Shown here: positions 2,875 to 52,420 of the stretch, one piece after another
Numbering within the stretch: position 1 is the first letter of the stretch
Layout: every line of letters begins with the position of its first letter
From: Azolla caroliniana
Lineage: Eukaryota; Plantae; Polypodiophyta
Assembly (NCBI GenBank): GCA_043228905.1
Contig: JBHGNT010000006.1
Span: forward strand, 17,298,001-17,362,000
Length of the DNA stretch: 64,000 bases
Direction: 5' to 3'
The notes under the pieces: generated by a model
The model's input: only the letters and a program-made list of their open reading frames with translations
Database searches by the model: none
What the model was told of the DNA's origin: nothing
Position numbers and translations under genes: made by a program

Positions 2875-2904
2875 GTATGTGTGATGTGTATACAAAACCC
2901 AATA

Positions 2905-2972
2905 AGGCTTATAGTGATTCGAACCCATGACCTCCTCAAAGAAGGCATACAACCCCATCCATTAGGATACAT
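2905..2972 (-). promoter_or_regulatory. tRNA-like Pol III A/B-box module in D LTR (antisense to the element)
   Basis: Minus strand TATCCTAATGGAT (from 2969) to GGTTCGAATC (from 2925). Second copy at 18650-18703. Confidence 0.65.
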
Positions 2973-3500
2973 CATATTGTACATATTAAATAATAAATTC
3001 TATTATATCAATAGGAAATACATATAATAATATTATTGAGATGTCGCCACCTTGCATAGGCTAACGCATGATTGCCAAGGGGCATGCTTGCATGAATGGC
3101 AAGTGGCGATCTATTGAGCGGCAAGCTCAACCGGAGCCGGATCGGCTGAATAAGCCGGAGCCGGTAAGCGAGACGGATCGGTATGACGGTGAGCAACCGA
3201 ACCGGCAAGCAGTGGAGGCCGGGTGCAATCCGTAACCGGAAGTCCAATCGGAAGCCTAGTATAGGATAAACTACTAGGTAGCTATAGTCTCGTAGTAAGT
3301 GTCAGATGCTCGTGTGAGCATTGAAGTACATGGTACTTCTGTCAGTCCCAAGAGGACTTGTATAAATAGTGCTACTTAGCACAGTGTATATACAGAGTTT
3401 TGATATAATTTTGAAATTGTGTTCTGCTCTCTCTGTCTCTCTGTCTCTCTCTCTCTGTGTTGTTCTCTGTTTTACGCCTCCGCAAACACTTACATTCTCA

Positions 3501-3512
3501 TGGTATCAGAGC
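3501..3512 (+). promoter_or_regulatory. PBS of C (initiator tRNA-Met)
   Basis: TGGTATCAGAGC directly after the 5' LTR. Confidence 0.95.
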
Positions 3513-3587
3513 GTGAGGGTTGAGAACCTCTGCTGCAGACATTTACTCTTGAGAAGAAAACTCTAACAGGTCGAAAACAGACACAGT

Positions 3588-6500
3588 ATGGATAGAGGCA
3601 TGGCTACGTCACTCCCGGTGGAGAAGCTCGACAGGAGAAACTACGCATCCTGGTCTTACAAGATGCACCAGTACCTGCTTGGACACGGGTACTGGAGTTA
3701 TGTCGAAGGAGCGAATGATGCGGCACCCGACTCGGCACACAAGGACTTCCCGGTATGGGAACAGGCGGCAAGCAGGGTGATGTACTACTTCGCGTCCAGT
3801 GTCGGCGATCAGCTGCTCAGCCACATCCGTGACGCCAAGACACCGAAGGATGCTTGGGGGAACCTGAAAAAGGTTTTCGCCGCAAGCACCACTGCCCGGA
3901 AGCTGCAACTCAGACAGGAGTTGAGCAATGTTCAACAGAAGAACATGTTCGTGGCAGACTACACGGGCCGGATAAAGGAGATTTGCGACTCGCTCGCCTC
4001 TATCAATGTTACCGTAGAGGAAGACGAGATGGTGCAGGTATGTCTCGGAGGCCTGGTGTCCAAGTTCGGAGCGTTCCGGACTGCGGTGTGTACAAGGGAG
4101 AATACCCCCTCATTCTTCGACTTACAGTCGATGCTCCTTGTAGAGGAGAACCACGCCGGTGCATCTACCAGTGCATCCCCGGACAGCCGAATGCTGTACA
4201 CGGGAACGGATCGGTTCCGTGGGCGTGGTGGAAGAGGTGGGTCGGCACGCAATGGAGGCGGCCGGCAAGAGCAGGAACGGAGGCACTATGAACGTGCTGA
4301 CAGCAGTTCCGGGACTTCCACAAGCAGGGGGAGTCAAGGCGGTGCCGGAGGCCGGCAAGACAAATCTGCTACGGAATGCTGGTACTGTGGCAAAAAAGGC
4401 CACAGGGAAAGCGAGTGCTGGAGAAAGTGTGCCGATTCGGACAAATCCGGATCCGGCAAGACCGGTAAGGATGGCCGGCAAAACTCGCACTACGCAAACG
4501 GATCAGAAGGATCCGGAACCGGAAAGGCCGGTAAGGGGCCAGCCTTGGTGATGAATCACAAGGCAAACTCAATGAAGAAGACCACTTCCAAAATGGAGGA
4601 AGTGTGGTATGTTGATTCCGGCGCGTCGAACCACATGACGAGCCACAAAGAGTGGTTCTCCTTTCTGGAGAGACCGGATCAACCAGGAGTAGTCGAAACC
4701 GGAGACGACACTCCTCACCCAATCGTGCACGTCGGAGAAGTCCCTCGAAGCCACGTCGGACAGAAAGGGAAGCTGATGAACGTATTACACGTTCCGACGA
4801 TCACGAAGAACCTGGTGTCCGTTGGTCAGATTGTCAACCAGGGGATGCAGGTGCGGTTTATGCACCTCGGGTGCTTCATTGAGGATGAGGGCGAAGTCAT
4901 TGCGCAAGGGCGCAGAGACGGGAGGATGTTTATCCTCGACACCAATGACTTTGGCACCGCTCTGTTCGCGAAACGACAGAAGGTCGAGTCGGACATCGAC
5001 CTGTGGCACAAGCGGATAGGCCACGTCAACTACCGGAGGCTTCAAGATCTGCAAACGAAACAAGTCGTTTTCGGTTTGCCGAAGTTCAGCGGCCGGAGAG
5101 CCGAAATTTGTGAAGCCTGCCAACTTGGGAAGCAACACCGGCTTCCATTCCCCACCAAACGGAACCGGAGCCGTAACAAGCTCGATCTCATCCATTCGGA
5201 TGTGTGGGGACCGGCACAAAGTGTAAGCCTTGGCGGGAGCCGATACTTCGTCTCCTTCATCGACGACTATACTCGGCATACTTGGATCTACCTCATTGAG
5301 CGGAAGAGTGAAGTCTTCGACTGTTTCCGGAGCCTCCAGAAGATGGTGGAACGGGAATCGGAGAGGAAGATCAAATGCCTTCGGTCGGATGGCGGAAAGG
5401 AATATTTTTCCGGCCAATTCACTAGTTATCTGCAACAGAAGGGAATTTGGCAAGAGTTCAGCTGCAGATACACACCGGAGCAAAACGGTGTGGCCGAAAG
5501 GAAGAACCAGACACTCGTCGAAGCGGCAAGGGCAATGCTGGAGGAAAAGAGCATGCCCCGGTTCTACTGGGCAGAGGCGGTTCAGACGGCTGTCTACATA
5601 CAAAACCGCATTGGTGACAAGGTGTCAGCTCATGAGCTGTATTTCGGGCGCAAGCTGAACTTAAGACACCTTCGGATATTCGGCAGCATAGCGTATGTGC
5701 ATGTGCCGGATCAGAAGCGGAGAAAGATGGATGCAAAATCGGAAAAATGCATCCTAATCAGTTATGCTCAAGAGCAAAAGGGGTATAAGTGCTATAACCC
5801 TCGGGCGAAGGAAGTCCGAGTTAGCCGGGATGTCGAGTTCAACGAATCGGCATCCTGGTACTCCGTACCGACTCCGACTTCCGATCCCGACCCAATGCCG
5901 GAGGATCAGGCCAGTGAGCCTGAATCAGCCCTGACAGAGGATGATGAAACCGGGACTCAAGATGAGAGTCCGGAATCGTTACGGTTGAGTGGACCGAACG
6001 AGCGACTGAGTCGGTTGGACCAGTCAGATGAAGAGACGGCAAGTGGTGGAGACTCTGCCGTGCTCTCCCCGCGCAAGGAACCAAGGAAACGGTTCACGCG
6101 CAAAGAGAAGGGGAAGAGGAAGATGCCGGAATTCGAAACCGGCAACGATGAGTCGGATCGGTGCGTATCCGACTCCGGAAAGGAGAAAGGCGGATCTTCG
6201 GCAACGAAGACCGAACTGGCCAAGAAGGACCTCAAATCAGGTGACGGTGCGTTGCGCCGATCAACTCGCCAGAAGGATCCCGTCATGCGGTACGGATACA
6301 ATGAATACATGGCGCATCATTATGCGTACATGACTAAGGTGACAGAAGTGCGTGAGCCGGAGAGCTACGCAGAAGCGACAAAGGACGCCACTATGGACGA
6401 AGAAATGCGGGCACTCGATGCCAACAAAACTTGGGACCTAGTTGATCCCCCCCGTCAGTGTAAACCGATCAGATGCAAGTGGGTGTACAAGGTCAAGTAC

Positions 6501-8594
6501 AACGCCGACGGTTCTATTAACCGGTACAAAGCCCGGTTAGTGGCGAAGGGATACGCGCAGACCCACGGAATCGACTACGACAAGACCTTCGCTCCCGTGG
6601 CAAAGATGACGACGGTTCGTGTGGTACTGGCGGTTGCTGCGGCAAGGGGTTGGCATCTTCACCAGATGGATGTGAAGAACGCCTTCCTTCAAGGAGAGCT
6701 TGAAGAAGAAGTCTTTATGACTCAGCCCCCCGGATTTCAATCGGAGATGAACAAGTCGGCGGTATGCCGACTGAAGAAGTCGCTTTACGGCTTGAAGCAA
6801 GCCCCCCGAGCTTGGAACGCGAAGATCACGCACCGATTGCGTAAGCTGGGGTTTGCTGTCTCTAAGTCGGACTCTTCGTTGTTCATCCGGCAAGGCTCTG
6901 ATGGTCCGGTATGTATACTCTTGTATGTGGATGATTTAGTCATCACCGGACCGGGTCTTCCCGAAATCAACCGCGTCAAGTCCCAGTTGTCGGACGCATT
7001 CGAAATGAAGGACCTGGGGGACCTCCATTATTTTCTTGGGATCGAAGTGATCCGGACCCCCGACGGCATATTGCTCTCACAACGACATTACGTGTTGAAT
7101 ATGTTGTATAAGTTCGGCATGACGGATTGCCGACCTGTCTCCACACCCCTGGACCGGAACCAGAAGCTCTGTCCCAACTCCGGACCGGCCTGCAATGAGA
7201 AACGGTTCCAACAGGTTGTCGGAAGCCTGATCTACTTAACCATCACCCGACCCGACATCAGCTATCCGGTCAGCATGGTAAGTCAGTTCATGCAGAAGCC
7301 AACCGTGGAGCACCTTTAGTGTGCGCAACGAATATTACGGTATGTCAGCGGCACTAAGGACCGGGGACTGCTATACCGTCAAGGTATACCCGAAGAGCTT
7401 GTCGGTTACACAGATGCTGACTGGGCCGGCGATGCGTCTGATCGCCACTCCACTTCCGGATACATGTTCTCCATAGGTAGCGCGGCCGTTCCGTGGAGCA
7501 GCAAGAAGCAGCCCATAGTGGCTTTGTCAAGCACTGAGGCTGAGTACCGGGCCGCTACCGTTGCCACTTGTGAAGCCATCTGGCTTCGGCGACTGCTGCG
7601 AGACTTGCGGATCGAGGTACCGACCCCGATCCCGATTTACTGCAATAACATGAGCAGCCTGCAGCTCGCCAGGAACCCTGTGTTCCATGCTCACACAAAG
7701 CACATTGAGGTGCACTACCACTTCGTGCGTGAGCGGGTCCTCAGCGGTGAAGTTGACCTACGGTATGTTCATACGGATCGGCAAGTTGCCGACATCTTCA
7801 CCAAGCCACTCGGATCGGACAAGTTGCAGCACTTTACCGACATGCTTGGTATTCAGCATCTCGACGTGCCGCACTTGAGGGGGAGAAGCAAGGGCAAAGA
7901 CTCTATCGAAATGGGCAAAGGCCAAAAAACTGTTGAACCCATCGGTAAGAGGAGAGCCGGAAGAAGAGGAGACAAGAAGATGAAGGAAGCCGAGTCGACG
8001 AAGGAAGTCGACACATCCGAACAGGTCGGAGCAAGCGGCTGTGAAGAAGAGTTGTGCACTCAGGAAGAGAAGTGCATGCTGTGCGGAGGTCATCACGACG
8101 GTACTGACCATGATACAGAGTCGAATGAAGAATTCGATTTCGGTTCACCGGCTGAAGAAGCCGAGGGAAGCATGGAGAAGGCCAAGACTCGGAAGTGGTC
8201 CGATGTGGTGAGAGGCCTGAAGCCGGAAGTCGAATCGGAGTGTACCGATTCAGACAAGAGCTGGAACGAGTCGGAGACAGCTGACTCGGATCAACAGATG
8301 GATCCGGATGAGTCGGATCGACTGAAGGCCAAGGGGACACAGACACAACGGAAGTCGATGCCATCGTGGGAGAACCGACGGATTGGCAAGCGCCGGAGTC
8401 ACAGCAACGTGAGTACTGAGATGGGCCTATTGAGCAGACATGCCGACCGAGAGGGTCGAGGCGCGCAGAACCAAAGGGGTCGTGGCAAACGGGACCGGAC
8501 CGGACGAGGAGCGCGAGCAAGGCGGAGTGACGCCAGGAGAAGTCGGTTGGAAGAACCGACTGCCACAGAGGTCGACACTACGACCCCACCTTAG
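3588..8594 (+). pseudogene. C gag-pol polyprotein with one in-frame TAG (7317-7319) and a ~235 aa C-terminal extension
   Basis: Zn knuckle CWYCGKKGHRESEC, protease WYVDSGASNH, integrase LWHKRIGH/CEAC/RSDGGKEY/QNGVAERKN, RT YKARLVAKG and LYVDDL, RNase H DADWAG and STEAEY. ORFs 3588-7319 and 7464-8594 share one frame. Confidence 0.95.
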
Positions 8595-9275
8595 GTTGAG
8601 CTTGAGGGGGAGTGTTGAGCGGCAAGCTCAACCGGAGCCGGATCGGCTGAATAAGCCGGAGCCGGTAAGTGAGACGGATCGGTATGACGGTGAGCAACCG
8701 AACCAGCAAACAGTGGAGGCCGGGTGCAATCCGTAACCGGAAGTCCAATCGGAAGCCTAGTATAGGATAGACTACTAGGTAGCTATAGTCTCGTAGTAAG
8801 TGTCAGATGCTTGTGTGAGCATTGAAGTACATGGTACTTCTGTCAGTCCCAAGAGGACTTGTATAAATAGTGCTACTTAGCACAGTGTATATACAGAGTT
8901 TTGATATAATTTTGAAATAGTGTTCTGCTCTCTCTGTCTCTGTCTCTCTCTCTCTCTCTGTGTGTTGTTCTCTGTTTTACGCTTCCGCAAACACTTACGT
9001 TCTCACGATCATACGTGCCTATGAGGTGGCGAGCATGCATGTATCCAAACCATGCTATATAAACATGTATTTGACTATTGATGAACCATTCTGGTTCAAC
9101 GCCAGTCTTCGGCATATTCTTGTAAACATTGCTCTCGTTGTTAATACATTATCAAATTCTTCTTATCTCTCTCATATCTTTCGCTTCTCATTCTCTTCTT
9201 CATTTTAAAACTCATTCCTAACTTTGGCCCTGACAGTTTGAACCAAAATCTTCCTCCCTTCTCTCTTTCTTCCTT

Positions 9276-9319
<44 letters not shown>

Positions 9320-9401
9320 TGTCTCTTTCACTCTCTATCGCTTTCTCTCTCTTTTCCTTCCTTCCTTCTCCTTGAGAATCTTGCCAAACGTTATCCTCTC
9401 C

Positions 9402-12059
9402 ATGGAGTCAGTTAGTAAGCAAGAGTATGTTTGCGTCGTCTCTGAACTAGAGCATCTCGCAAATAAGTTTGTGGCGTTAGAACAAGAGAATCAATGATTG
9501 CTTCGAGATTTGCAACAAGTAAGCATAGAAAAGACACAACAATATGATGATTCATCAACACGTGTATTGTAACTCGAAGCAATATTGCGGTCTCTTCATC
9601 AACAAGCTTCAATGCAACAAACCTCTCCCAAAGAACCGAAGATTTTTTTGCCTGGGAAGTTCGATGGCAATCGATCACTGTTTTGAGGGTTTCTAAACCA
9701 AGTACGACTAGTAATTCATATGCACCCTAATAGGTATCCAATTGATGTAGCTCAAGTTGGACTAGTTGGGACCCTCTTAATAGGAACTGCATGAGTGTGG
9801 TTTGCACCACTACTAGAAAAGAAATTTCCTCTTCTCCAAGACTTCAAAGGTTTTATTAGAGAATTTCAAGAAAACTTTGGAGACACTGATAGTGTTAGAA
9901 CAACGATTAACAAGATTCGAAGATTGTGTCAAGGGGACCGTCCTGCCTCTGCCTATGCCACAGATTTCCGCCTCCTAGCTTGTGATATTCTGTGGGGTGA
10001 AGAAGCCTTAATGGATCAATTTCGCTATGGACTAAGAAATGATGTAAAGGATTTGCTATTAACTTTTCATAAAGATCCAAGATCACTTACAAAAGCGATA
10101 AGTCGTGTAGTGCGATGTGACAACCGCTTATTCGAGCGACGTTCGGAGCATCAATTAATGTCATGACCAAGAACGGATCAAACATATGCTTCGGTAGTAG
10201 GCTCAACACCTATGAGCACTACCCAAACTTCACACATGATTCCATCAGGTGGTCCAAGTCCAATGGAGATCGATGTAACACGTCGTCGAGGGCCTTTATT
10301 TGAAGCGTCGAGCAAAGCGTCTATGTTTATATTGTGCTGGTCCAGGACACATCGTGATCACATGACCACATAGACCAAAACGACAAGTAAATCAAGTAAG
10401 TATTAGTGAGAATCTTCATTCCAATTCTCTAGTTAGATCGTCTAGCCCTAGTAGTCCCACATGTCATGGTTAGTCCAATAGTTTTGAAGTCTTGAGTCAA
10501 CTTGATGAAATATTAAATGAATAAGTCCAACCAAAATCGGAGCCATTTGGTTGGACAATCTTGAATAGGTAAAGTCAACCCCAAGTAGTGGTTCCATTTG
10601 ATCGAATCATGTTAGCAGAGTTTTTTCAGCACAAGTGGAGTTTAGCACTTCTAGATGTCCTCGAGTTCTTGCCTCTGCTCTCTTAGATTTAGGAGCCAAC
10701 TCTAGTTTTATGGACAAAGAATTTGCTTTATCCGAGAAAATCCTATTGAAAAAACTCCCTTGCCTTGCATCTATTGTAGTCATTGATGGTCGCCCTATTT
10801 CATCCGGGAATATAGTTGAAGAATTTGAGCCAATTTGAGTAGTTCTTGGTAGCTTTACTTGCATGATTTCCCTCAATATAATTAGTAGCCCTGAGCATCC
10901 GGTTATCCTTGGTTTGCATTTGTTTGAACTTCATAATCCTGAAATTGACTGGAAAAATCAAACAATCAATGATTTCCAGCAGAAACCTGAATCTAGTTGC
11001 CTTGTTACTACCAACCAAGATTCAAAACCTCACCAAATCTCGCCCATCTCTCTACAAAAATTACGAGAAGACGGGCAAACAAATGAAATGTTTGTCTTTG
11101 CAGTAATAGCAAACCCATCCTCTAGCTCACAAGGGGTAGGTACTCCCCTCCCTACCAAGTACTTGGATTTGGAAGACATCTTCAGCAAAGCTAAAGCTAG
11201 TTCTCTCCCAGACCATCGGCCTTATGATTGTCCTATCAATCTACAACCTGGGAAAGAGCCACCATGGGGCCCAATATATAATCTATCACCTTTCGAACTC
11301 AAGGCCCTTCGAGAGTATATAGACGAGCACTTAGCAAATGGATTCATTCGACATTCTAAAAGCCCTGCTGGTGCACCCATCTTCTTTGTCAAGAAGAAAG
11401 ATGGATCTCTACGACTGGTCGTGGACTATCGAGATCTAAACAAAATCACAGTTCGAAATAGATATGCTCTACCCTTGATTTCGAGTTTACTAGAGCATCT
11501 TAGTGGAGCGAAAGTTTTCACGAAGCTAGATCTTGGAGGTGCATATAACCTTGTTCGGATACGTCCAGGAGATGAATGGAAGATAGCATTCCGTACTCGA
11601 TACGGACATTTTGAGTACACGGTTATGCCTTTTGGTCTCACGAATGTGCCCGCGGTTTTTCAACACATGGCGAATGATATTTTCCACGATTTTTTGGATT
11701 CATTCACCATAGTATTTCTTGATGACATCTTGATCTACTCGAAAACTCAAGACGAGCATGACATACATGTCCGCCAAGTCTTCCAACGCTTATGAGAATA
11801 TGGGCTCTTTGCCAAACTTGAGAAATGTAGCTCTGATCAAAACCACGTGGAGTTTCTGGGGTATGTGGTTTCACAACAAGGTATATATATGGATCCATCT
11901 AAGGTTTAGATAGTTCTGAACTGGCAACCACCTCGTTCAGTGCGTGATGTTCAATGTTTCTTAGGATTTGCGATTTTTTACCGCAAATTTATCAAGAATT
12001 ATTCAAACATTGTGATGCCTCTCACAGAGCTTACACGAAAGAAAAAGTCATTCACATGG
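9402..12059 (+). pseudogene. D gag, protease and RT
   Basis: [57 protein letters not shown], with several stops and frameshifts. Confidence 0.9.
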
Positions 12060-12064
12060 AGTTC

Positions 12065-15000
12065 TGTTGAGTGACAAGCTCAACGTTGGGTGCGTAACAT
12101 AGTGCAGTGCGTAACCCAGTGCGTAAAACATTACGCATAACGTAAGCCATAATGGTGCGAACACTGCGAGGCCGTTAGAAAGATATTCCTTGAAAGGAAT
12201 AATTTTGGGAGTGAGTGTAGCGGCTCATTTATGAGCGTCAAGTACTGTCAGTACTTGTGTCAGCCCGATTGTCAGGGCTTGTATAAAAGGTGCTCACTGA
12301 GCACGGTGTATGTACATAGAGAGTCATTATTTTGAATTTGAGTTTTCTGTTGTCTGTCTCTCCCTCTCCCTCTCCATCTCTGTGTTTTCTGTGTTTTACC
12401 GAACTGTCTTATTCCTCCGAACTGTGTACTCTGTGTTTCACATACGCTTCCGTACACGCTATTCTTTTACATGGTATCAGAGCGCAAGGGTTGAAGTCCT
12501 CTGCAGCCGACAAGAAAAGCTTGTGACAAAACAGAGTTGAAGTCGTTCTTCGTTTTTTTTCGGAAAAGTAAAAGACAACAATATGGACAGAGGTATGGGA
12601 AGCTCGCTACCGACCGAGAAGCTCGATAGGAGCAACTATGCGTCTTGGTCGTACGAAGGAGCTAATGATGTAGCACCCGATTCGACACACGAAGATTTTT
12701 TGGCTTGGGAACAAGCGGCAAGCAGATTTCTCTACTGCTTTGCATCCTGTGTGAGCGACCAGGTATTGAGCTATATTCGGGATGCTAAGACGCCAAAGGA
12801 CGCGTGGGCGAATCTCATAAAGATTTTTTCCGCAAGCACAACGGCCAGGAAGCTGCAGCTCAGGCAGGAGCTTAGCAATGTCTGGCGAAAAGATCTCTCG
12901 GTGGCTGATTACACATCCTGAATCAAGGAAATCTACGATTCTCTCGCTTCCGTCAATGTGAACGTTGAGGAAAATGAAATGGTGCAGGTTTTCCTTGGTG
13001 GGCTAACGTCTAGGTTCGGAGCCTTCCGAACAACGGTCTGTACGAGGGAGAATACGCCTTCGTTCTTCGAGCTTCACTCAATGTTGCTCGTGGAGGAAAA
13101 TCACACGGGTGCTTCGACGAGTATGCACGCCGACGGCAAGATGCTGTACACGGAGGAAGATAGGCCCCGTGGTCGTGGTGGACAAGGAGGATAAGCACAC
13201 AATGGAGGTGGCCAACAAGAGCAGAACAAGCGGCATAATCGATGTGTCGACAACAGTTCCGGACCCTCCACAAGTAGGGGGAGTCTTGGTGGCACCGGAA
13301 GCCGGCAAGAGAAAGTCGCGTCAGAATGATGGTACTGTGGCAAAAAAGGACACAAGGAGAGCGAGTGCTGGAAAAAGAGAGCCGATTCAGACAAAGCCGG
13401 ATCGAGCCGAAGAGACGCAGAGAGGCGTCAGAGATCGCACTACGCAGAAAGCTCTGAACGAGCCGAAAACAAATCAGGCCCAGCCTTCGTAATGAAGCAT
13501 AAGGCCAATTCTATGGCCGTGAACACCTCGAAATCGAGCGATGTATGGTATGTTGATTCCGAAGCGTCAAATCATATGACATGTCACGAGGAATGGTTCT
13601 CGTACTTGGAGAAACCGGAATCGCAAGGAGTGGTCGAAACGGGAGACGACACTCCGCATACCATCAAACATGTCGGAGAAGTTCCCCACAGCCATGTCGG
13701 GCAGAAAGGGAAACTCATGAACGTATTGCATGTCCCGACAATAACCAAGAACCTTGTGTCGGTCGGACAGATCGTCGACCAAGGTATGCAAGTTCGATTC
13801 ACGCATCTCAACTGCTTCATAGAAGAGGAAGGCAAATTGATCGCACAAGGGCGCCGTGAAGGGAGGATGTTTATCCTCGACACTAATCAAGCCGGCACCA
13901 CGTTGTACGCGAAAGGACAAAAGGTCGAATCGGATATCGACCTGTGGCACAAGTGATTGACTAGTAAATTTCCCATGGCTTTGTGAGATGCAAACAAAGA
14001 ACATTGTTTTCGGCTTGCTGAAATTTCGGGGCCGTAATGGCCAAGTCTGTGAAGCCTGTCAGATGGGAAAACAACACCGACTTCCATTCCCCAATGAGCG
14101 TAATCGTAGTCGAAGTCCGCTGGATTTGATCCATTCGGATGTGTGGGGTCCGGCATAGAACGTGAGTCTCGGTGGAAGCCGTTACTTTGTAACCTTCATC
14201 GACAACTTCACTCGGCACATTTGGGTATGCACAATCGCGAAGAAGAGCGAAGTCTTCGTATGTTTCCTGAAGGTGAGAAAGACCAAATGCTTACGGTCCG
14301 ATGGCGGGAAGGAGTACTTCTCCGACCAGTTCACAAGTTATCTACAGAAGGAGGGAATTCGACACGAATTCTCGTGTAGATACACGCCGCAGCAGAACGG
14401 CGTGGCCGAGCGGAAGAATCAGACGATTGAAGAAGTGGCCAGGGCACTGCTTGAAGAGAAGCATATGCCGAAATTCTATTGGGCTGAAGCCGTGAAGACA
14501 GTTGTCTACCTGCAGAATCAGACTTCTGTTAATGGAGGAGTGTCGCCACATGAGCTGTATTTCGAGAAGAAGCTGAACTTGGCACACTTGAGGATTTTCG
14601 GCAGCATTGCGTATGTGCACGTGCCGAAGGAGAAAAGGAGGAAACTGGATGCTAAAGCTGAGAAATGTATCTTGGTTGGCTATTCAGATGAGCAGAAAGG
14701 GTATAAGTGATTATAACCCTCGAACAAAGGAAGTACGCGTAAGCCGCGACGTCGTGTTCGACGAGTCCGCTTCGTGGTACTTGCCTTCACCTCCAGTACC
14801 TGAAGACTCCATTCCGAATTCTGAGGAAGAAGTCAGTGAGGTTGAGATGCCTCTGCATGATGAGGAAATCGGAGCTTTGAGAGAGAGTCCGAACTCATTT
14901 TAGCTAAGTGGGCCAAATGAGGGGTTGGGCCGAAATGGCCAACCTATTGAAGAGACGGCGAGTAGTGGAGACTCAACCATGATGTCCCCGCGTAAAGAAT

Positions 15001-16513
15001 CGAGGAGAGGGTTTATGTGCAAGGAGAAGGGCAAGAAGAAAATGCCGGAATACGACTTCGGCAATGCGGAGTTAGATCGGAGCGAGTCTGACTACGGGCA
15101 AACTGAAAAGGAACCTCCACGGAAGAGGTCGACAGTAGTCGAAAAGGTCATGAAATCGGGTAATCACGAATTATGCCGATCTACCCGCCAGAAGAACCCC
15201 GTAAAGAGGTACAGGTATAATGAGTACATGGCGCACCATTACGTGTACATGACACGAGTAGCGGAAGTGCGTGAGCCGGAGAGCTATGTAGAAGCGGCGA
15301 AAGACGCGAACTGGCGTGCCGCAATGGAGGAAGAGATGGGCGCATTATCGGAGAAAGAAACCTGGGACCTAGTTTACGCACCAAAGGGTGTAACACCGAT
15401 CAGATGCAGATGGGTGTATAAGGTGAAATACAACACCGATGGCTTTGTCAACCGCTACAAGGCTCGTTTAGTAGCGAAAGGCTACGCACAGAAGCACGAC
15501 GTGGACTATGACGAGACCTTCGCGCCTATCGCGAAGATGACTACTATGCGAGTCCTACTGTCAGGAATAGTACTAAGCAGAGAGAGAATTAGTACTAAAG
15601 AAGAGAAGCACTATTAGTACTAAGAGGACGGGACTACGTAAGATTCCTCGAGAGAAAGAGAGAAGAGGAGAGAGAGATAGCGAGATGAGAGAGAGGGATG
15701 ATGATAACAACTAATATATTATGTGAAGGATAAGTACAAAGTGGCTAAGAGGCTTAAGACTGGCGTTGAACCAATTTGGTTCAAAAGAATGTCTTGTGCC
15801 TCCTTTTATAGTGCTCTCAGGAGTAGTCCTGAAGCTTCTAGAATGTTCTAGAGAAATCTGGAATATAAATTAATTTCTTATAATAAAACATAAATGAAAA
15901 TAATATTTTACAAATTACAATAGATGGTGTGATGGTTAAGAGCTCAACCCATACCCATAAGGTCATGGGTTCGAGTCTTGCCATATCATAACACCTACTA
16001 GTCGTAGCAGTAACAAAGGGGTGGCACTTACATTAGATGGATGTAAAGAACGCGTTCCTGCAAGGTGATCTTGAGGAGTAGGTGTACATGGTACAACCCC
16101 CTAGATTTCTATCCAAACAAAACACCTCGGCAGTTTGCCGATTGAAGAAGTCCTTATATGGACTAAAGCAAGCCCCGCGAGCTTGGAATGCAAAGATTAC
16201 GCAACAGTTGGGTTTGCACCGTCGAAATCAGACTTTTCTCTATTTGTTCGGTAAGGTCAATATGGACCGGTCAGCCTGCTCTTTATGAGCGTCAAGTACT
16301 GTCAGTACTTGTGTCAATCCAATTGTCAGGGCTTGTATAAAAGGTGCTCACTAAGCACGGTGTATGTACATAGAGAGTCATTATTTTGAATTTGAGTTTT
16401 TTGTTGTCTGTCTCTCCCTCTCCATCTCCATCTCTGCGTTTTCTGTGTTTTACCGAACTGTCTTATTCCTCCAAATTGTGTACTCTGTGTTTCGCATACG
16501 CTATTCTTTTACA
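12065..16513 (+). mobile_element. Ty1/Copia element E (related to C, decayed) inserted in D pol
   Basis: 5' LTR 12065-12471, PBS TGGTATCAGAGC 12472-12483, gag-pol fragments 12583-16281, partial 3' LTR ~16282-16513. Perfect TSD AGTTC at 12060-12064 and 16514-16518. Confidence 0.93.
15559..15993 (-). mobile_element. Solo LTR F (B/M family) inserted in E RT
   Basis: TGTCAGG...CATAACA termini, TSD CCTAC at 15554-15558 and 15994-15998, homologous to 22391-22818. Confidence 0.93.
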
Positions 16514-16518
16514 AGTTC

Positions 16519-18600
16519 TAGTGCAACCAAAGTTTTTGAAAGCCTAAAGAGAGCATTCACTTTTGCTCCAATTCTACTTCATGCTGCCCTAGAAAAACCG
16601 TTTATCATCGAGGTGGATGCATCTGATTTTGCACTAGGAAGTATCTTGTCACAATTAGGAGATGATGGGAAGCTACATCCAATTGCTTTCCATTCACGGA
16701 AATTCGAAGCCGCAGAGATCAATTACGAGATTCACGAAAAAAAGCTTCTAGCCATTATAGACTCGTTTGAACAGTGGAGACATTTCTTAGAAGGTTCTCC
16801 CCACCAAATCATTGTTTACAATGATCATAAAAACCTCACATACTTTCAAAGTGCTAGGGTCTTGAGTTGCCACCAAGCTCGTTGGGCACAATTTCTAACA
16901 CATTTTGACTTCGTCATCACATATTGCCCAGGAGTACAACAAGGAAAGGCAGATGCTCTCTCACGGCGATCTTATTTGGCTCCACAACCAGGAGAGCCCA
17001 CATTTGATCATCAAAAACAAATCGTCTTGGGGCCTAATCGGTGACGACTATTAACTATTAATGCCTCTCAAACATTTGAAGATTCAAGTCTTCTTGATTC
17101 AATCCGAACAGATATCATTTCTGATGAATTTGCTCAAGATATATTGAATCATATAATTTCAGATCACGCTTCTTCTTCAAGCTCCAAGAATCCTCGTAAA
17201 GATTATAACCAGTTTAAATGGGATAATGGTTTACTTTTTTGCAACACACTTTTGTATGTCCCAAATGGTTCGTCTCGATTTCAAGTAATGCAATATTGTC
17301 ACGACAACCCAATGGCCGGGCACTTTGGAATCCACAAAACTTTGGAGCTAGTTTCTCGAAACTATTGGTGGCTTCACCTTTGAGAGTTTGTTGAAGATTA
17401 TGTTCGTAGTTGTGATGTGTGTTGTCGGTCAAAGATTCCACGACATCGACCATATGGGTTATTACAACCATTGCCAGTTCCTATTGGTCTGTGGAAATCC
17501 ATCTCGGTGGATTTTATTACAGATCTTCCAACTTCGAAGAGTTTTGATGCTATTCTCACTATAGTAGATTGATTCACAAAGATGGCGCATTTTCTTCCAT
17601 GCACGAAAACCATCAGCAATAAAGAAACTGTAGACATCATTATGAAAGAAGTATTTCCGCTTCACGGTCTTCCAAATGACATCATTAGTGATTGTGGCCC
17701 ACAATTCATCTAAAAATTCTGGAAACACTTGCTTGAGATGCTCAAAATCTCTTGTAAACTTTCGTCAAGCTATCATCCACAAAGTGACGGTCAAACCGAG
17801 TGGACGAATCAAACATTAGAGCAATATCTTCGGTGTTTCATCAATTACCAACAGGATGATTGGGTGGATTTTTTGCAATTTGTAGAGTTTGCATACAATA
17901 ATTCAGTTCATTCCTCAATTGGGTATACTCCATTTTTTGCAAACATAGGATATCATCCTTGTTGGACAATGATGGCACATCCAGAAATCTCGAAGTTGCG
18001 TTGAAGATCGTCTGCGTCAACTCCAAGACGTGCCTGTTGCACTTTCTCAACATTTGCAAACTGCTCAAGCCACACACAAAAAAGCCACAGATCGTCACCG
18101 TCTCGACTCTTCACCAAAGGAAGTGAAGTTTCAAATGGGGGATCGTGTATGGTTACTATGACGTAATGCGAAGATTACTAGACCTTGTGACAAGTTGGAT
18201 TATCAATGACTTGGTTCATTTATTATCTCCAATCAGATTAATGAAGTTGCATTCCGCCTTGATCTACCTCCACAGATGCATCTACATCCGGTGTTTCATG
18301 TCTCATTGTTGGAACCCTACATTGGTAGTTCCATTCCAAATCGGGTTGTCCTACCCCCCACCTCTAGTTCAACTTGTTGATGGCCCAGAATTTGAAGTCA
18401 AAGCTATTTTAGACTCCAAGATAATACGTAAAAAGCTTTATTATCTCGTGGATTGGTTAGGATATACACCAAATGATCGTACTTGGGAGCCAGTTGAGAA
18501 CCTTGATAATGCCTCTGACTTGATGGCTGAATATCATCGCCAATATCCAGATAAGCCAAGTCCGAATTCATGCATTACGACTCGTGGAACTCGTCGTCAA
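16519..18600 (+). pseudogene. D RNase H, integrase and chromodomain
   Basis: [55 protein letters not shown]. Confidence 0.9.
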
Positions 18601-19075
18601 AGGAGAGGGATGGTGTCATGTGTATACAAAACCCAATAAGGCTTATGGTGATTTGAACCCATGACCTCCTCAAAGAAGGCATACAACCCCATCCATTAGG
18701 ATACATCATATTGTACATATTAAATAATAAATTCTATTATATCAATAGGAAATACATATAATAATATTATTGAAATGTTGCCACCTTGCATAGGCTAACA
18801 CATGATTGCCAAGGGGCATGCTTGCATGAATGCCAAGTGGCGATCATACGTGCCTATGAGGTGGCGAACATGCATGTATCCAAACCATGCTATATAAACA
18901 TGTATTTGACTATTGATGAACCATTCTGGTTCAACGCCAGTCTTTAGCATATTCTTGTAAACATTGCTCTCGTTGTTAATACATTATCAAATTCTTCTTA
19001 TCTCTCTCATATATTTCACTTCTCATTCTCTTCTTCATTTTAAAACTTGTTCCTAACTTTGGCCATGACAGTATT

Positions 19076-22390: not shown

Positions 22391-22484
22391 TGTCAGGAAT
22401 AGTACTGAGACAGAGAAGAAATTAGTACTAAGAGAGGAATATTAGTACTATGAGGAATAGAGGGTGTAGAACACTCGAGAGAAG

Positions 22485-22543
<59 letters not shown>

Positions 22544-22818
22544 TGATGATGACAGCGATATATTATGTGAGAAGAATATACAAGGAAGGCTAGGAGGCTT
22601 AAGACTGGCGTTGAACCGATTTGGTTCGAAATAATGCCTTGTGCCTCCTTTTATAGTGTTCTCAGGAGTAATCCTGAATATTCTAGAATGTTCTAGAGAA
22701 ATCTGGAATATATATTATTTTCTATAGTAAAACTTAAATAAAAATAGATAGTGTAATGGTCAAGAGCTTGACCCATGTAACATAAGGTCATGGGTTCGAG
22801 TCTTTCCATATCATGACA
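22391..22818 (-). repeat. 5' LTR of B
   Basis: TGTCAGG...CATGACA termini. Minus-strand TATAAAA at 22649-22655. Homologous to 1031-1420, 15559-15993, 39665-40098 and 45132-45561. Confidence 0.9.
22749..22812 (+). promoter_or_regulatory. tRNA-like Pol III A/B-box module in B-family LTR (antisense to the element)
   Basis: A box TAGTGTAATGG at 22749, B box GGTTCGAGTC at 22793. Copies at 15925/15968, 40029/40073 and 45492/45536. Confidence 0.7.
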
Positions 22819-33308: not shown

Positions 33309-33984
33309 GTTAGGAACTCTAGATGTTGTGAGCAACATAAGGGCTAAAGACAAAAATAAAGATCAAGGAGACAAAGATGAGGCGAAACGAGAATACTAGA
33401 TTGATGTGTCAATGACTGGTGTTGAATCCCTTGAAAGGGACCGAGGATGTTACAAGTATTTATACAATTTTCAAGATTGAATATCTCTAGAATATACTAA
33501 CGACCAGAATATTCTCGAATTTATTATACACTAACTCTACAACATATACAAGTTCACAATCGAATGTGGACAGTTCACAAGAGTTTCCATATGGTTAACA
33601 CAACACAATGTATTGTGTGTGTTAAAAGTTAGAGGTTCGAGTCTAGAAAGTGACATTATCCCCCTTTTTACATTGCCTTCCCAAACCGGTCCTTGGTTTA
33701 AGGGGATACTGTTGATGAAAATCTTAGACCACCTCCAAAGTATTTCGTATATCCTAGAGAAGGAGTAACCCTTCTAGAAGACGAGGTATTGAACACAAAC
33801 AAGCATGAGCAACCTTCCCCAAGACTGGAACACGAATACCAACAGGTGTGAGCGACCATGTGTGGTCCTCACGGGGAGCATGAACACCAACGGGCATGAG
33901 CGACCATGTGCGGTCCTCGTCGGGAATTGGAACACGAATACCAATAGGCGTGAGTGACCATGTGTGGTCCTTACGGGGATTACC

Positions 33985-39600: not shown

Positions 39601-40114
39601 GAAGGATGTCACTTGCAGTCCTTCCGATATTCCGCACCGTAGCATCTCCACCTTGTAGTCCCGTTGTCAGGATCAATACTAAGACAGAGAAGGAATTAGT
39701 TCTAAAAGATGAGGATTAGTACTAAGAGAGGCATAGAACTCTCGAGAGAAGGAGAGAGTGAGCGAGAGCGAGAGAGATAGAGAGAGAGAAAGGATGAGAG
39801 AATGATGATAAAAGATATATATTATGTGAAGAGAGTATACAATACTAGCTAGGAGGCTTAAGATTGGCTTTGAACCGATTTGGTTTGAAATAATGCTTTG
39901 TGCCTCCTTTTATAGTGTTCTTAGGAATACTCCTAAAGTTTCTAGAATGTTCCAGAAAAATTTGGAATATAGATCAATTTTCTATAATAAAACATAAATG
40001 AAAATAATATTTTACATGTTACAATGTATGGTCTAATAGTCAAGAGCTCGGCCCATGTAGCATAAGGTCATGGGTTCGAGTCTTGCCATATCATGACACT
40101 ATCCCCCCTTTAAA

Positions 40115-43100
40115 ACGACGAGTGTCATGAGTTGTTTTGGATGGAGGACCCGGTTTGTCTAGTTATTGACGATGGAAGTCTTCAAGAAGAGCACGAGCAT
40201 TGGTCACATTCTCTATCGGTTCCCAAGTACGTTTGCTGGGACTATATCCTAGCCAATCGATTAGATAGTAGAGCTTGTTGCGAACAATCTTGGAATCAAG
40301 GATGGCGGCAACCTCGTACTCAGGTCCATCTTCAAGCTTGATCGGGGGTGGAGGTTGTGTAATACGTCCTGGGATGGTGTTCTCTTGAGAGGGTTAGAGG
40401 AGAGAACTATGAAACACCGGATGTATCCGAAGTTGCGGAGGTAGATCGAGACGAAAAGCGACATCATTAATCTTTCCTATAATACGGAAATGACCTAATC
40501 GTCGATAATCCAACTTCTCGCATGGGCGAGTAGTCTTGATGTGTAATCGTAGTAGCCATACCCAATCTCCAATGTTAAAATAGGATGGAAGTTGATGACG
40601 ATCCGCATAAACCTTGTGTGTTTGTTGAGGTTGTTGGAGATGAGTAGATAAATCAGCTTGTATCTTGCGTAACCGCTCTAAACGATCCTGTGCGCAAGGA
40701 TTTGTTGACAACTCTGGGGTTTCAAATACACACCACAGGGGGTGAGGACCCGTATAAGCATAAAATGGCATAACCTTAGTCGATGCGTGGATAGAGTTAT
40801 TGTAGGCAAAGTCGGCGAAGTGGAGAATATCTACCCAGTCATCCTGATGATAGCTTAGAAAGCACCAAAGATACTACTCTAGTGTTTGATTTTGTTCGTT
40901 TTGCTTGGCCATCTGTTTGTGGGTGGTAGTTGGAGGAGAGGTTACAAGTGACCTTGAGCATTTTAAAAAGGTGCTTCCAGAATTTCGATACGAACTGGGG
41001 TCCACGATCGCTGATGATACTATCGGGAAGGCCATGATGCCGACATACTTCACGCATGACAATTTCAACGGTTTCTTCATTGGATATTTCCTTAGTACAT
41101 GGCAAGAAATGAGCCATCTTTGTATATCGATCTACAACTATTAGAATCGCATTGAACCCCTTAGAGACTGGAAGATCTGTGATGAAGTCTAGAGCAATGG
41201 ATTGCCATGACTTGCTTGGAATTGGTAATGGTTCTAATAAACCATATGGATGATGCCTTGGCATTTTTGCTCTACAGCATGTATCACAAGTCTGAACAAA
41301 ATCTTCGACAAATTGTCGCATACGGGGCCACCAAAATGATCGTTGTACTAAATCTAATGTTTTAGTGCTACCAAAATGCCCAACTGTATATGTGTCATGA
41401 TAGTTTTGGACTACTTGAAGGTGGCAAGAACGATTAGGAACATACAAGAGCTCATTAAAGAATAGTAACCCATCATGGTATTTGAATTGCCGATAGTCCG
41501 TACTTGGTGGTTGCGACTATGAACAAGATGGTCGAGAGGGATCAATTTGTGGTAGAATGGCTTGGGCGAAAGCATCGGTCTTCAAGTCCTCACGTATAGT
41601 ATCAATAACGTGGGAATCCATGGGCATGCCAAAGACTTGTGTGGCTTGCAGTCGTGTCGGTCCCAAGATTACTTGCTTTTGGTTATCAAAAGCTGGCTTG
41701 TTGGGCGCGATGCTAGGTACAAACGCTGTGATAAGGCATCTGCCTTCCCTTGGTGCTTCCCCAGACGATATGTAATTTTGAAGTCGAAACGTGTGAGGAA
41801 GTGGACCCACCGAGCTTGACGTCGATTTAACATAGGAGCGTCCTGAAAGTAGGCAAGGTTTTTGTGGTCACTAAATACGGTGACTTCATGAGAGGATCCC
41901 TCTAGAAAATGCCTCCATTGCGTAAAAGAGTCCAGTATTGCCAATAGCTCCTTATCATGAATTTCATAGTTGATTTCGGTGGCGTCAAACTTGCGTGAGT
42001 GAAAAGCCACATGATATAGCTTCTCATCATTACCCCGTTGTGACAGAATGCTCTCCAATGCGAAATCCGATGCGTCTACTTCAATAATGAATGGTTTTTC
42101 CGGATCGACATGAGCTAGAATTGGAGCCGATGTAAATGCCTTTTTAAGACTCTCGAAAGCCATGTCCACTTCTTTAGACCAAACAAACGATTGTCCCTTC
42201 CTGGTAAGCTGTGTGAGAGGCAGAATGAGCTTTGAGTAATCTTGTATGAACTTCCGGTAAAAATTGGCAAAGCCTAAAATGCATTGCACATCTCGCACCG
42301 AACGCGGAGTCTGCCACTCTACCATAGTTTTGACCTTAGCTGGGTCCATGGAGATGCCTTCTGAGGAAATGACATAGCCCAGAAATTCCACCTGGTTGCA
42401 CCCAAAACTACAATTTTCCAGCTTTGCATAAAGAGCATGTTATCGAAGTTGTTTTAGTGCTAATAGTACATGAGAATCATGCTCTTCTTGGGTCTTCGAA
42501 TAAACCAGTAGATCATCCAAATAGATGATCAAACAAACGTCCAAGAGATCTCGGAATATATCATTTGGCATGTGTTGGAAGACTGTTGGCGCATCAGTGA
42601 GGCCAAACGACATAACCGTATACTCGAAGTGCCCATATCTAGTGCGAAAAGTGGTCTTCCATTCATCTCCTGGTCGGATTTGTACGAGGTTATAGGCTCC
42701 CCGTAAGTCGATTGTCGTGAAGAACCTGGCACCGTTGATCCGTTCTAAAAGACTTGAGATAAGGGGAAGTGCATACCTATTTCTGATTGTCACCTTATTC
42801 AAGCCACGGTAATCTACAACGAGACAAAGTGATCCATCCTTTTTCTTGACGAAGAAAATGGGTGCACCGGCTGGAGATTTTGAATGCCAAATGAAACCAT
42901 TTTCTGAATTCTCCTCTATATAGGATCGCAGAACTTGTAGCTCGGTTGGTGACAAATTGTAGATTGGTCCCCATGGTGGCTCTTTCCCCGGTTGTAAATC
43001 GATGGGGCAATCATACGGTCGATGGTGAGGAAGCGTATTGGCTTGTACTTTATCAAACACATCAGCATAATGATGATACTTCTTTGGAAGTTGATCGGTG

Positions 43101-44480
43101 GACTCCTCTTTAATGGTGTCTGAGGGCTTTATTGCTATTGCGAAGAGAAACATTTCTTCCTTGCGTCCTTCTTCCCGCAACTAATGTAGCGATATGGTTG
43201 CAATCTCATGAGTAGACCTTCGGGCTTTTCGATACTGGATTTCTCTTGTTCTCCAATCTATGTCTGGGTTATGTAATTTGAACCATGGTAATCCTAAAAC
43301 AATGGGGTGTTCTAGGATGCTAATTATATTAAATGATACTACACATGCTAGATTATCTAGGACAATATTAATGGGCTTTGACTCTTCTATGATATTTCCA
43401 GAAACAATGGGACGACCATCAATGACTACTACAGAGGCTGGACTCGGGAGTTTTCTGAGTGATATCTGATGAGCTTGGGCAAAGCTCCTATCCATGAAGC
43501 AAGAATTAGCTCCGGAATCTAGAAGTGCTAAGACATGTATTGGAGGGGTACTTTTAGTACTAGCTGTTACTTGGGCTACGAACACATTGCTAACTTGCTT
43601 AGAGGGAATGGAACCACTAATGGGCTGCATAGATCTAGGGCGCATTATATGACTCCCTCGGAAAAGGTTTCGCTACCACTAAGGCGTAGGTAGGCTCAGA
43701 TCTTGTCCTTGGCATCTGGATGACGTTCGTAACGCCGTTCGAAGAGGCGATTGTCACATTTCATTGCGCGACTGATTGCTTCTATTAATGACTTTGGTTC
43801 TTCGGGAAAGGTCAAGAGTAAATCTTTGACATCGTTACGTAGACCATAATGAAATTGCTCCATTAACGCTTGATCATCCCAGGGGATATCGGAGGCGAGT
43901 AGGTGAAAATCTGCAGCGTATGCGGAGGCTGGATGATCGCCTTGACATAGTTGTTGGATTTTGTTGATTGCTATCCTTATGCTGTCCTTATGTTGTCAGT
44001 ATCTCCAAAATAGGCTTTAAACTCACTTATAAATTCCTCAAAATTGTTTAGTAATGGAGATTCTCTTTCTAACAGCGGAGCGAACCATGCCAACGCTGAG
44101 CCACTTAACAATGTGCCTACTAAACCCACTCGTGATGCATCGGTGGGATATCGGGATGGATGCATTTCAATAACTAGTTGTACCTGATTAAGGAACCCTC
44201 TAAATTGCGATCGCGTTCCATCGAATTTCATGGGAAGGCCAATCTTGGGTTCTTTAGGAATCCCTTGTGTTGCGGGTCCTTGTTGTTGCATCACTATGAT
44301 GGTAGCTTCGAGTTGTTGCACACGTAACGTTATCTCCCCGTGTTGTTGTTTTTCCAGTGCTATTTGTTGAAGATCCCCCAACAAACGGTGATTTTCTTGT
44401 TCTAGTGCTACAAATTTCTCCTTTAAGCACTAGAGCTTCGAGAAAAAAGATCGGTATTCCTGAGCGCTAACAATTTCCAT
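40115..44480 (-). pseudogene. M gag-pol (gag/pol junction deleted near 43640)
   Basis: ALLDSGANS, IYLDDLLVYS, EVDASDFAL, WQSIALDFITDLP, HPQTDGQ and a chromodomain, with multiple stops. Confidence 0.9.
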
Positions 44481-44489
44481 TTTACTAGG

Positions 44490-44979
44490 TGTTGTCCATA
44501 GGCCATAAAAATAAATTAGTTAAATGTAATACGCCGGTAGGTAAGGCTAGTAGGTGAGGAAGGTAGAGTTTAGGAAAACGCTGAGCTTCGAGCCTCACAG
44601 TCAGCCGACGGCTCGGCTGTGTATGAAGATAAATTATATAAACCGAGGTCTACGTACCTCGGCAGGAGAAGATATCTATAGGATAGGCGAGGTCGTTTTC
44701 ATAGTTATAAGAGCTCTGTAAGGTCATCGACTGTGAGCCGTGTTTTGTAATCATCGATAATTGTTTGTAGTAATACATATCTATTAGCTCTTATTGTTTT
44801 CATCTGTGTTCCGTCGTTCCTACGATCTCAACTATGTTTATGCCCCGGGTTATATTCCGGGTATGCTCTCTGTTCTCTTCCCCTAATGATGCCTCTGTGC
44901 ACAAGTCTTCACGTTACACTTCCCTTGATACCGATAGCCTGTAGGCATATCGAAGGTGTTTCCAACGGAACGAATAACA
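44490..44979. mobile_element. Solo LTR N (unrelated family) inserted just upstream of the M gag ATG
   Basis: TGTTGTCC...CGAATAACA termini, TSD CTAGG at 44485-44489 and 44980-44984, absent from the homologous site in B. Confidence 0.9.
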
Positions 44980-45732
44980 CTAGGGAGGATAAGAGGACTA
45001 GTATGAAAGGAAGAAAGCGGTAAGAAGATGAGGGAAACCGAAAAGAAGACCGGAAAAAGGGGATATGTAAGAAGATAAAAGGAAGAGGAGGAAAAGAGGA
45101 GACGGAAGGAGGACAGAAAATTGGTTCAAACTGTCAGGATCAGTACTAAGACAGAGAAGGAATTAGTACTAAAAGATGAGGATTAGTACTAAGAGGTGTA
45201 GAACTCTCGAGAAAAGGAGAGAGTGAGCGAGAGAGAGAGATAGAGAGAGAGAAAGGGTGAGAGAATGATGATAAAAGTTATATATTATGTGAAGAGAGTA
45301 TACAATAATAGCTAGGAGGCTTAAGACTGGCGTTGAACTGATTTGGTTCGAAATAATGCCTTGTGCCTCCTTTTATAGTGTTCTCAGGAATACTCCTGAA
45401 GTTTCTAGAATGTTCCAGAGAAATTTGGAATATACATCAATTTTCTATAATAAAACATAAATGAAAATATTATCCTACGTATTACAATGTATGGTCTAAT
45501 GGTCAAGAGCTTGACCCATGTAGCATAAGATCATGGGTTCGAGTCTTGTCATATCATGACACCCGTAAATAACGTGACACATCTTTCTCGTTGAATTGCT
45601 CGTTCCGTTGCACAAGCCGCTCTACTGCCGCCGCAATCTCAGACATCGCGCGTGGTTCTTGTAGCATCCGCTTGAACATTGTCATCATATTGTTAGTTTC
45701 TTGTTGATTTTCCATCTCCTTGCCACCCAGTT

Positions 45733-45748: not shown

Positions 45749-46212
45749 AAATGTGTCGTGCCTTTCGGCGCCGGATCGTTTGCGTGAGTCGGGTGGGAAC
45801 CGTTGGGGTTTTGAACTAGGAGAGGAAGAATACGAGATATGTGTAGTTATGAATAGGTTGTAAGAAAGGAAGATATGAAATTCATGAATACCACGAGTAT
45901 AGCATATTAATTAATGTTTTAGGAAAGAATATGAATTTAGATTGCAAGAGAGAAATAGACGGAAAAACGTGAAATCCCCACGAATATAATATATTAATCA
46001 AACCTTCAAACAAAGTCCACAAATCCCTATATACATCTTTCTCTCTTTCGTATATAGTGATGTGAGAGTCTTTACAATCCATGCTTTTCGATAGACTATA
46101 TGCTTTCTCTAACATGCTTTTTTTTATCTAACTATAGCTTTTTTTATTTAGAAAATATACATGAAATAAGCTTTCTATGTGGGATATCTATTTAATAATA
46201 GTTATGATATGT

Positions 46213-46276
46213 TAGTGTAATGGTAAGGCTTTACATTATAAACATGGATGTACAAGGTTCAAATCTTGCCTTATCA
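46213..46276 (+). promoter_or_regulatory. tRNA-like Pol III A/B-box module in I2 LTR (antisense to the element)
   Basis: TAGTGTAATGGTAAGGC at 46213 and GGTTCAAATC at 46256. Confidence 0.6.
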
Positions 46277-46378
46277 ATGTGATATATATATTTATATTTT
46301 CTTCTATTTCTTCATATTTATGGAATCTAACACTATACACGTTTTTCGTGTAGTGTACGAAGTACACTACGACAACGT

Positions 46379-52271: not shown

Positions 52272-52420
52272 AACCGGAGGATGAAGAGTACCCGGCATGA
52301 AGCCGGATGAAGAGTACCCGGCATGAAGCCGGATGAAGAGTACCCGGCTACGGATCCGGATGATGAAGACCCCGGCTACGGAGCCGGATGATGAAGACCC
52401 CGGTTACGGAGCCGGATGAC
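52272..52420. repeat. Short tandem repeats (26-28 bp) in U3 of the Q LTR, also at 57072-57220
   Basis: GGATGAAGAGTACCCGGCATGAAGCC about 3 copies, then CCGGATGATGAAGACCCCGG 2 copies. Confidence 0.85.

Follow-up and report, generated by a model that had tools for sequence, protein, structure and literature searches.

An antisense A/B-box module at the U3 start of Gypsy long terminal repeats in Azolla caroliniana, a candidate TFIIIC site

We analysed a stretch of 64,000 nucleotides from the fern Azolla caroliniana (GenBank assembly GCA_043228905.1, contig JBHGNT010000006.1, positions 17,298,001 to 17,362,000 of the forward strand), hereafter the window, which is a nest of plant retrotransposons. 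Long terminal repeats (LTRs) of the Gypsy elements designated B, F, M, D and I carry, at the start of their U3 region, a tRNA-like module composed of an A box and a B box in antisense orientation to the element, and this module is confirmed as a real feature. Judged from the sequences compared below, it is apparently a lineage-wide feature under selection.

Position of the module and the elements that carry it

The module was searched for as an A box and a B box 42–46 nt apart with at most two mismatches summed over both, using a consensus for the two boxes. The pattern required T54-T55 (tRNA numbering), and its position 62 was relaxed to C or T after the window sequences had been seen. Seven matches were found in the window, whereas 60 block-wise dinucleotide shuffles averaged 0.23 matches and never exceeded 3. 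All seven lie near the 5′ end of an LTR and point antisense to the element, as an earlier note on this DNA had claimed. In the 5′ LTR of B, the module occupies 22749–22803 (+), 15 nt from the LTR edge and with no mismatches; its A box lies at 22749–22759, a variable-loop AGGTC at 22785–22789 and the B box at 22793–22803. The solo LTR F has the module at 15925–15978 (+, one mismatch). Both LTRs of M carry it, the 5′ LTR at 45492–45546 (+, no mismatches) and the 3′ LTR at 40029–40083 (+, one mismatch), as do both LTRs of D, at 2969–2915 in the 5′ LTR (−, two mismatches) and at 18703–18649 in the 3′ LTR (−), the latter with a run of four T (T4) 17 nt past the B box. The LTR of I matches at 46213–46266 (+) without mismatch, and sequencing depth peaks there in four of four DNA runs. 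The motifs were present at the coordinates given in the earlier note, and its spacings between box starts (44 nt in the B 5′, M 5′, M 3′, D 5′ and D 3′ LTRs, 43 nt in F and I) were reproduced; one word in the D 3′ LTR, given there as TTCGA, reads TTCAA.

The module is an integral part of the LTR, being present in both LTRs of M and of D without a target-site duplication (TSD) or tail of its own. More generally, all seven window matches, and 10 of the 12 matches in whole related loci described below, stand at the start of U3 and have no tail, which is not the pattern of a dispersed short interspersed element (SINE). No tRNA was called by ARAGORN in the window and 39 of the 79 related loci, or by Rfam in the window and two short stretches. 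The module may resemble tRNA-Val. Copia LTRs and element J differ from the module by 4–7 mismatches. GGTTC matches at 20756 and 43284 were rejected, as they fall on the sense strand of protease coding sequence. A perfect A-box match on the sense strand occurs in both LTRs of the non-chromovirus N (62810 and 51262, −), 22 nt into the scanned LTR stretch and without a B box.

Four dissimilar LTR families had been proposed as carriers. These are B/F/M, D, K and I, with B, F and M forming a single family whose LTRs are 77–93% identical. K, the polypurine tract (PPT)-preceded LTR of a third family, has a TATA box and an R motif resembling those of the other chromovirus LTRs, and qualifies as a carrier only in part: its partial module (33591–33655, +) includes a perfect B box at 33634–33644, 11 nt from the start of this LTR on the minus strand.

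The 5′ LTR of B (22391–22818, −) has TG..CA ends and lies next to a primer-binding site (PBS) complementary to the start of R. Inward of the module, the RNA polymerase II (Pol II) core of this LTR (22591–22700, −) comprises heat-shock element (HSE)-like repeats, a TATA box and the R start, which acts as self-primer. The 3′ LTR of B (1031–1421, −; TSD GTCCC/ATCCC) has kept the A box; a deletion at 1421/1422 removed its B box and PPT. The solo LTR F (15559–15993, −) is flanked by a 5-bp TSD, GTAGG. Chromovirus M (39665–45561, −) is full-length and decayed, with LTRs at 45132–45561 and 39665–40098 (identity 403/430), TSD ACGGG and Pfam matches to gag, protease, reverse transcriptase (RT), RNase H (RH) and integrase; its chromodomain lies outside the open reading frames scanned. 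D (2880–19070, +), a second chromovirus family, encodes RT, RH, integrase and a chromodomain and contains nested Copia insertions, one of which splits the 5′ LTR (2880–9235); the 3′ LTR lies at 18614–19070 (identity 444/459; TSD GTATG/GTATT). The chromodomain (PF00385) was found in B and D with its three aromatic positions present. The nearest named integrase matches of the chromovirus carriers are basidiomycete. B, M and D are self-priming, as the complementarity of their PBS to the start of R implies.

Element I has a 5′ LTR at 45751–46374 (−) followed by a tRNA-type PBS that begins with TGG, which we take to be of the Trp type. The earlier note was correct in assigning a module to this LTR, which has no partner in the window, so that its 5′ end (~46374) is inferred. 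The internal region of I extends to ~36300, with M inserted into it, and the 3′ end is truncated. Its RT is 71% identical to protein P0145 of the liverwort Riccia and 28% identical to the RT of M; named matches of the clade of I and N, queried with the related element N, are from Riccia. Together with the Tcn1-like traits of B, M and D, these matches indicate that the host is probably a non-seed plant. The comparison of I with Phygy/Selgy-like non-chromoviruses is one of RT identity and PBS type. With gag/pol domains detected by Pfam in M, D, B and I, and given the low RT identity of I and M, the claim that autonomous-type Gypsy elements of two distant clades carry the module was supported.

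Two young Copia elements are present at 3112–9005 and 52202–57432, with LTRs 96% and 99% identical and open frames of 1250 and 1295 aa, respectively; the former is inserted into the D 5′ LTR ~140 bp inward of the A box. HSE-like arrays stand between module and TATA box in B (4 repeats, 22660–22710) and in the related loci L002 (11) and L010 (8), with none in D or I, and occur also in the U3 of L036 and L048. Families with such arrays may be heat-inducible.

Kept positions and distribution among relatives

Positions were compared across 11 family representatives, whose rows were anchored on their best match, so that counts at tRNA-invariant positions are partly circular: T8, A14, G19, G53, T54, T55, C56, A58 and C61 are kept in 10–11 of the 11. 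The same kept columns were recovered in a plain MAFFT alignment. Three variable-loop bases outside the scoring pattern, A44, G46 and T47, are kept in 11/11, 10/11 and 11/11 representatives, compared with 0.27–0.73 in adjoining spacer columns. The sequence between the boxes, which the earlier note had described as not conserved across families, is therefore not random. A W-box was considered as the cause of the kept variable-loop bases and rejected, as C48 and position 49 vary. The A/B spacing stays at 43–46 nt in carriers other than K while the length of the surrounding U3 changes, and U3 from the module to the TATA box aligns across families only in short patches.

The cloverleaf has not been retained. 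Stem pairing within rows was no better than across families for the acceptor (0.34 versus 0.37), anticodon (0.40 versus 0.40) and T stems (0.57 versus 0.58); the D stem was borderline (0.70 versus 0.60, p 0.05; p 0.04 with 18 sequences). A shared fold is likewise absent, with stability z scores of −3.6 for B and −3.1 for M, and −1.65 to 0.41 in six other families. In B (22753–22808) and M (45488–45560) the module folds as a long family-specific hairpin, not cloverleaf-like, that is absent from these six families. Only 7 of 21 rows have a T4 run between the B box and the end of the LTR. That boxes and spacing are kept while the stems are lost suggests that the DNA itself is recognised; this pattern, together with the absence of a T4 run from most rows, favours a TFIIIC site over a functional RNA.

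Relatives were chosen by alignment of the integrase-chromodomain region, not by the motif, which gave 79 metagenome loci (from the best 80 of 537 matches, with 9 of 64 parts scanned). The LTR start was placed by a PPT rule in 65 loci (14 had none), and seven were too short, leaving 58 scorable LTRs; 16 of these came from one assembly series with the elements closest to those of the window, and 42 from elsewhere. In the series, the antisense module was found with at most two mismatches in 10/16 LTRs and with at most four in 14/16 (L002 and L003 being near-copies), compared with 0/42 at up to three mismatches and 1/42 at four in the other LTRs, and 0/16 at up to four on the sense strand of the series LTRs. 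A scan of whole loci gave 12 matches in 21 series loci (78 kb), 10 of them directly after the PPT, and none in 58 others (333 kb). Viral contigs yielded neither relatives of the two clades nor a match to the module pattern.

In a quick tree the carriers fell into two groups, of 17 rows (support 96) and 6 rows (support 97), the smaller being the sister group of five elements of other assemblies that lack the module. Carriers include two Tcn1-like chromovirus subclades and a non-chromovirus Gypsy element. The module is lineage-restricted, having either arisen repeatedly or disappeared from other lineages. Spacer similarity (z ~4.5 for I versus L036, ~3 for I versus B) is compatible with one origin as well as with several. 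Tandem repeats occupy the U3 start, after the PPT, in L013, L016, L017, L018 and L045.

Locus L003 has a second antisense A+B module, with two mismatches in each copy, at 1062–1010 and 6386–6334 (−), in frame within the protease-RT linker of two tandem elements. These elements are 84% identical and have a single LTR in common (4200–4640), so that a recombinant or an assembly join is possible. The same linker in B, M and L001 contains the A-box-like word alone, and no other of 36 linkers scored better than 4.

Proposed function and rival explanations

In the chromoviruses, 11–48 nt separate the B box from the LTR edge, and the A box starts 92–186 nt from the Pol II TATA box, on its outward side; for I, the distance from B box to inferred edge is ~108 nt. 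Because it faces outward, the module cannot transcribe the element. TFIIIC recognises A and B boxes and recruits TFIIIB to the AT-rich upstream region (PMC13578239), and in fission yeast a tRNA gene (tDNA) with TFIIIC and Pol III stops the spread of heterochromatin, as described in the accessible text of PMC2040200. The edge-pinned position of the B box fits such a boundary role. We therefore tentatively favour, at slightly under an even chance, a reading in which the module binds TFIIIC as a chromatin barrier that keeps the element's own Pol II promoter open in heterochromatin. This corresponds to the insulator half of the inference in the earlier note, which would fit the observations best.

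Under this barrier reading, the head of a tRNA or SINE would have been captured into U3 in one to three events, with at least one independent capture or inter-clade transfer. Each retrotransposition would copy the module to both LTRs, so that it would move with every new copy, and selection would act on the DNA-binding positions. The outward boxes would be bound by TFIIIC, probably with TFIIIB, and the bound module would form a barrier between flank and promoter, leaving the latter open inside heterochromatin. With the boxes facing outward, TFIIIB would come to sit in the AT-rich DNA that separates the module from the TATA box, and any Pol III would head away from the Pol II start. In the part of PMC6317226 available, the three aromatic positions of the Tcn1 chromodomain are reported to bind methylated H3K9. 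A barrier would be of obvious use to elements whose chromodomain is expected to read this mark. A broader version, in which Gypsy elements of one plant lineage repeatedly captured, and exchanged between distant clades, a portable TFIIIC insulator at the LTR edge and so stayed transcribed in chromodomain-targeted heterochromatin, appears possible but rather doubtful.

Several observations weigh against the barrier reading. The module is absent from L008 and L025 of the same series and from the sister clade L013/L016/L017/L018/L045, and is therefore dispensable; L027, added by hand, has six mismatches, and the A box of K is out of register (four mismatches at tRNA spacing). Position 62 is mostly T where the canonical base is C, and T was permitted post hoc. 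A model built on the A and B boxes alone predicts neither the retention of A44, G46 and T47 nor the borderline D stem. A barrier alone leaves the fixed antisense orientation unexplained, since the yeast tDNA barrier is orientation-independent (PMC2040200, available part). The earlier note had asked whether the boxes are more conserved than the remainder of U3; in the B family no excess was found: among seven B-group LTRs the mean pairwise difference was 0.15 in the B box, 0.31 in the A box and 0.19 in the rest of U3, so that the boxes are no better kept. This test is weak, as decayed copies mostly record change after insertion, and it gives the reading no support. In favour of the reading, in I-like copies from DNA runs aligned to the I module (four runs under four organism labels from three studies), 2/22 positions varied in the boxes versus 32/94 elsewhere (p 0.015); these contigs combine more than one family, and changes peculiar to the window copy enter the count.

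Contig depth in these DNA runs peaks over the I module (X1, 49–77 thousand summed, versus 2–9 thousand upstream). Loose contig ends at 46267–46324 suggest that an abundant LTR family ends ~20 nt past an I-type B box, and I may have acquired its module by capturing the 5′ end of such an LTR. Poly(A) RNA runs gave 26–29 reads each, mostly partial matches whose strandedness was not verified, and Pol III RNA escapes libraries of this kind.

Some of these observations would be explained by a neutral relic, that is, by a single ancient SINE or tRNA insertion in U3, or a few of them, carried along by U3 copying. The lack of excess conservation in the B group, the loss in L025 and L008 and the degenerate state in K, L010, L024, L027 and L038 point this way. 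Against it, only box and variable-loop positions survive while stems, spacer and flanks have diverged, box positions are less variable in I-like copies, and the spacing holds at 43–46 nt amid changes in U3 length; we regard a relic as quite unlikely. The other half of the inference in the earlier note, an antisense RNA source, was weakened, as neither a terminator nor an RNA fold is conserved. A short antisense Pol III RNA, running from the 3′ LTR over the PPT into the integrase end, could tune copy number or seed small interfering RNA, and would account for the retention of both boxes, their spacing, the bases of the variable loop and perhaps the D stem, as well as for the T4 run past the B box in 7 of 21 rows. 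However, in the other 14 rows no T4 precedes the LTR edge, so that a 5′-LTR transcript would enter unrelated flanking DNA; no fold is shared, only B and M being unusually stable, as a non-tRNA hairpin; and such RNA is expected to promote silencing of the element. We consider this explanation improbable.

The outward geometry would also suit a divergent upstream activator, with TFIIIC loading TBP-containing TFIIIB inward of the A box and thereby aiding the start of the sense transcript. The same divergent layout is seen in the tRNA-like boxes upstream of trypanosomatid snRNA genes, and in the accessible text of PMC4950102 mutation of boxes A and B of such a sequence almost abolishes transcription of Leishmania U2. 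Inward of the A box the LTRs are AT-rich, and CAA occurs at most 14 nt upstream in 11 of 21 rows, a count for which no background was computed. An activator nevertheless seems unlikely: the distance from A box to TATA box is variable (92–186 nt), the LTRs own a TATA box and HSE-like repeats, and the precedent serves a Pol III gene, not a Pol II RNA of 5–6 kb. A very unlikely alternative places the function in reverse transcription or integration, where the sense RNA would pair with a host tRNA or the self-primer for strand transfer, or TFIIIC near the cDNA end would tether the integration complex. RNA-level tRNA-pairing sites are known from HIV-1 U3-R and Ty3, the module adjoins the PPT and the attachment (att) end, and its B box, read on the sense strand, is similar to the PBS with which B, M and D prime themselves. 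These carriers self-prime with a PBS that matches the R start, however, and in L003 the PBS and R start covary without the U3 B box following. Moreover, the kept bases form two separate boxes rather than a contiguous complement, and I has a tRNA-type PBS yet the same boxes.

Implications and comparison with known systems

Chromoviruses are believed to target heterochromatin, which raises the question of how their promoters remain active in it. A kept, outward-facing TFIIIC-type site at the LTR edge would be a concrete and mutable candidate for such activity, and natural carriers and non-carriers (L025, L008 and the B 3′ LTR) are available for comparison. Provided that the module is bound, the abundant solo LTRs, F among them, would spread TFIIIC sites genome-wide and could shape chromatin domains. 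Should the portable-insulator reading hold, it would give plants their first tDNA-type barrier, and the elements a new means of escaping silencing for which they need not encode a protein. PMC13578239 credits the fern Azolla with >7500 tRNA genes. LTR-borne tRNA-like modules could inflate such counts; those described here were not called by ARAGORN.

The earlier note knew of no description of this arrangement. Nor did we find any account of autonomous Gypsy LTRs with an A/B-box module in antisense orientation, in a literature search that most subscription papers, Repbase Reports and bioRxiv supplements lay outside, and the fern-genome paper and nine of its supplements gave no passage on tRNA-like repeats. 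The closest precedent, the Helenus elements among the miniature terminal-repeat retrotransposons (TRIMs), had been missed, however. As described in the available portion of that work (TRIMp3; Kojima 2024, PMC10886601), both Helenus LTRs contain tRNA-derived sequence kept around boxes A and B that is not a functional tRNA, and several supplement LTRs also keep the variable-loop AGGTC. Helenus elements are non-autonomous and 311–1263 bp long, and their tRNA part is in the sense orientation, is followed by a T run and can drive the element RNA. Here, in contrast, the module is antisense at the U3 edge of 5–6 kb gag-pol elements with their own TATA box. Elements B, M, D and I are thus not members of Helenus, since they have gag/pol and an antisense module; they carry the idea behind TRIMp3 over to autonomous elements, with a layout in which the element's own RNA cannot be the product of this promoter. 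The same source argues, in the part available, that the autonomous partners of TRIMs need Pol II, and states that "not a few" Repbase LTRs have tRNA-like parts, of which only TRIMs were analysed; further cases may therefore exist (PMC10886601).

Other systems share single aspects of this arrangement, as far as the accessible parts of the sources describe them. The Tcn1 chromoviruses of non-seed plants resemble B, M and D in their aromatic chromodomain, self-priming PBS and fungal nearest named relatives, but no Pol III boxes are mentioned for Tcn1 LTRs in those parts (PMC6317226, PMC2864245), and most Tcn1-like relatives beyond the one assembly series lack the module. Trypanosomatid snRNA promoters likewise include non-coding tRNA-like A/B boxes that point away from the gene they possibly serve, which in their case is a Pol III gene at a host locus (PMC4950102). 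The yeast tDNA/TFIIIC barriers have A/B boxes at a domain edge and the mode of action proposed here, whereas they are host loci, work in either orientation, and are described in the available text neither in plants nor on a mobile element (PMC2040200, PMC13578239). The Cassandra and Ajax TRIMs also have an internal Pol III promoter within their LTRs, which is of the 5S type, in sense orientation and in non-autonomous elements, and in Cassandra transcribes the element itself (PMC10886601). Thus, the antisense module of the Azolla elements represents a variation on LTRs that bear Pol III promoters, from which it differs in geometry and probably in function.
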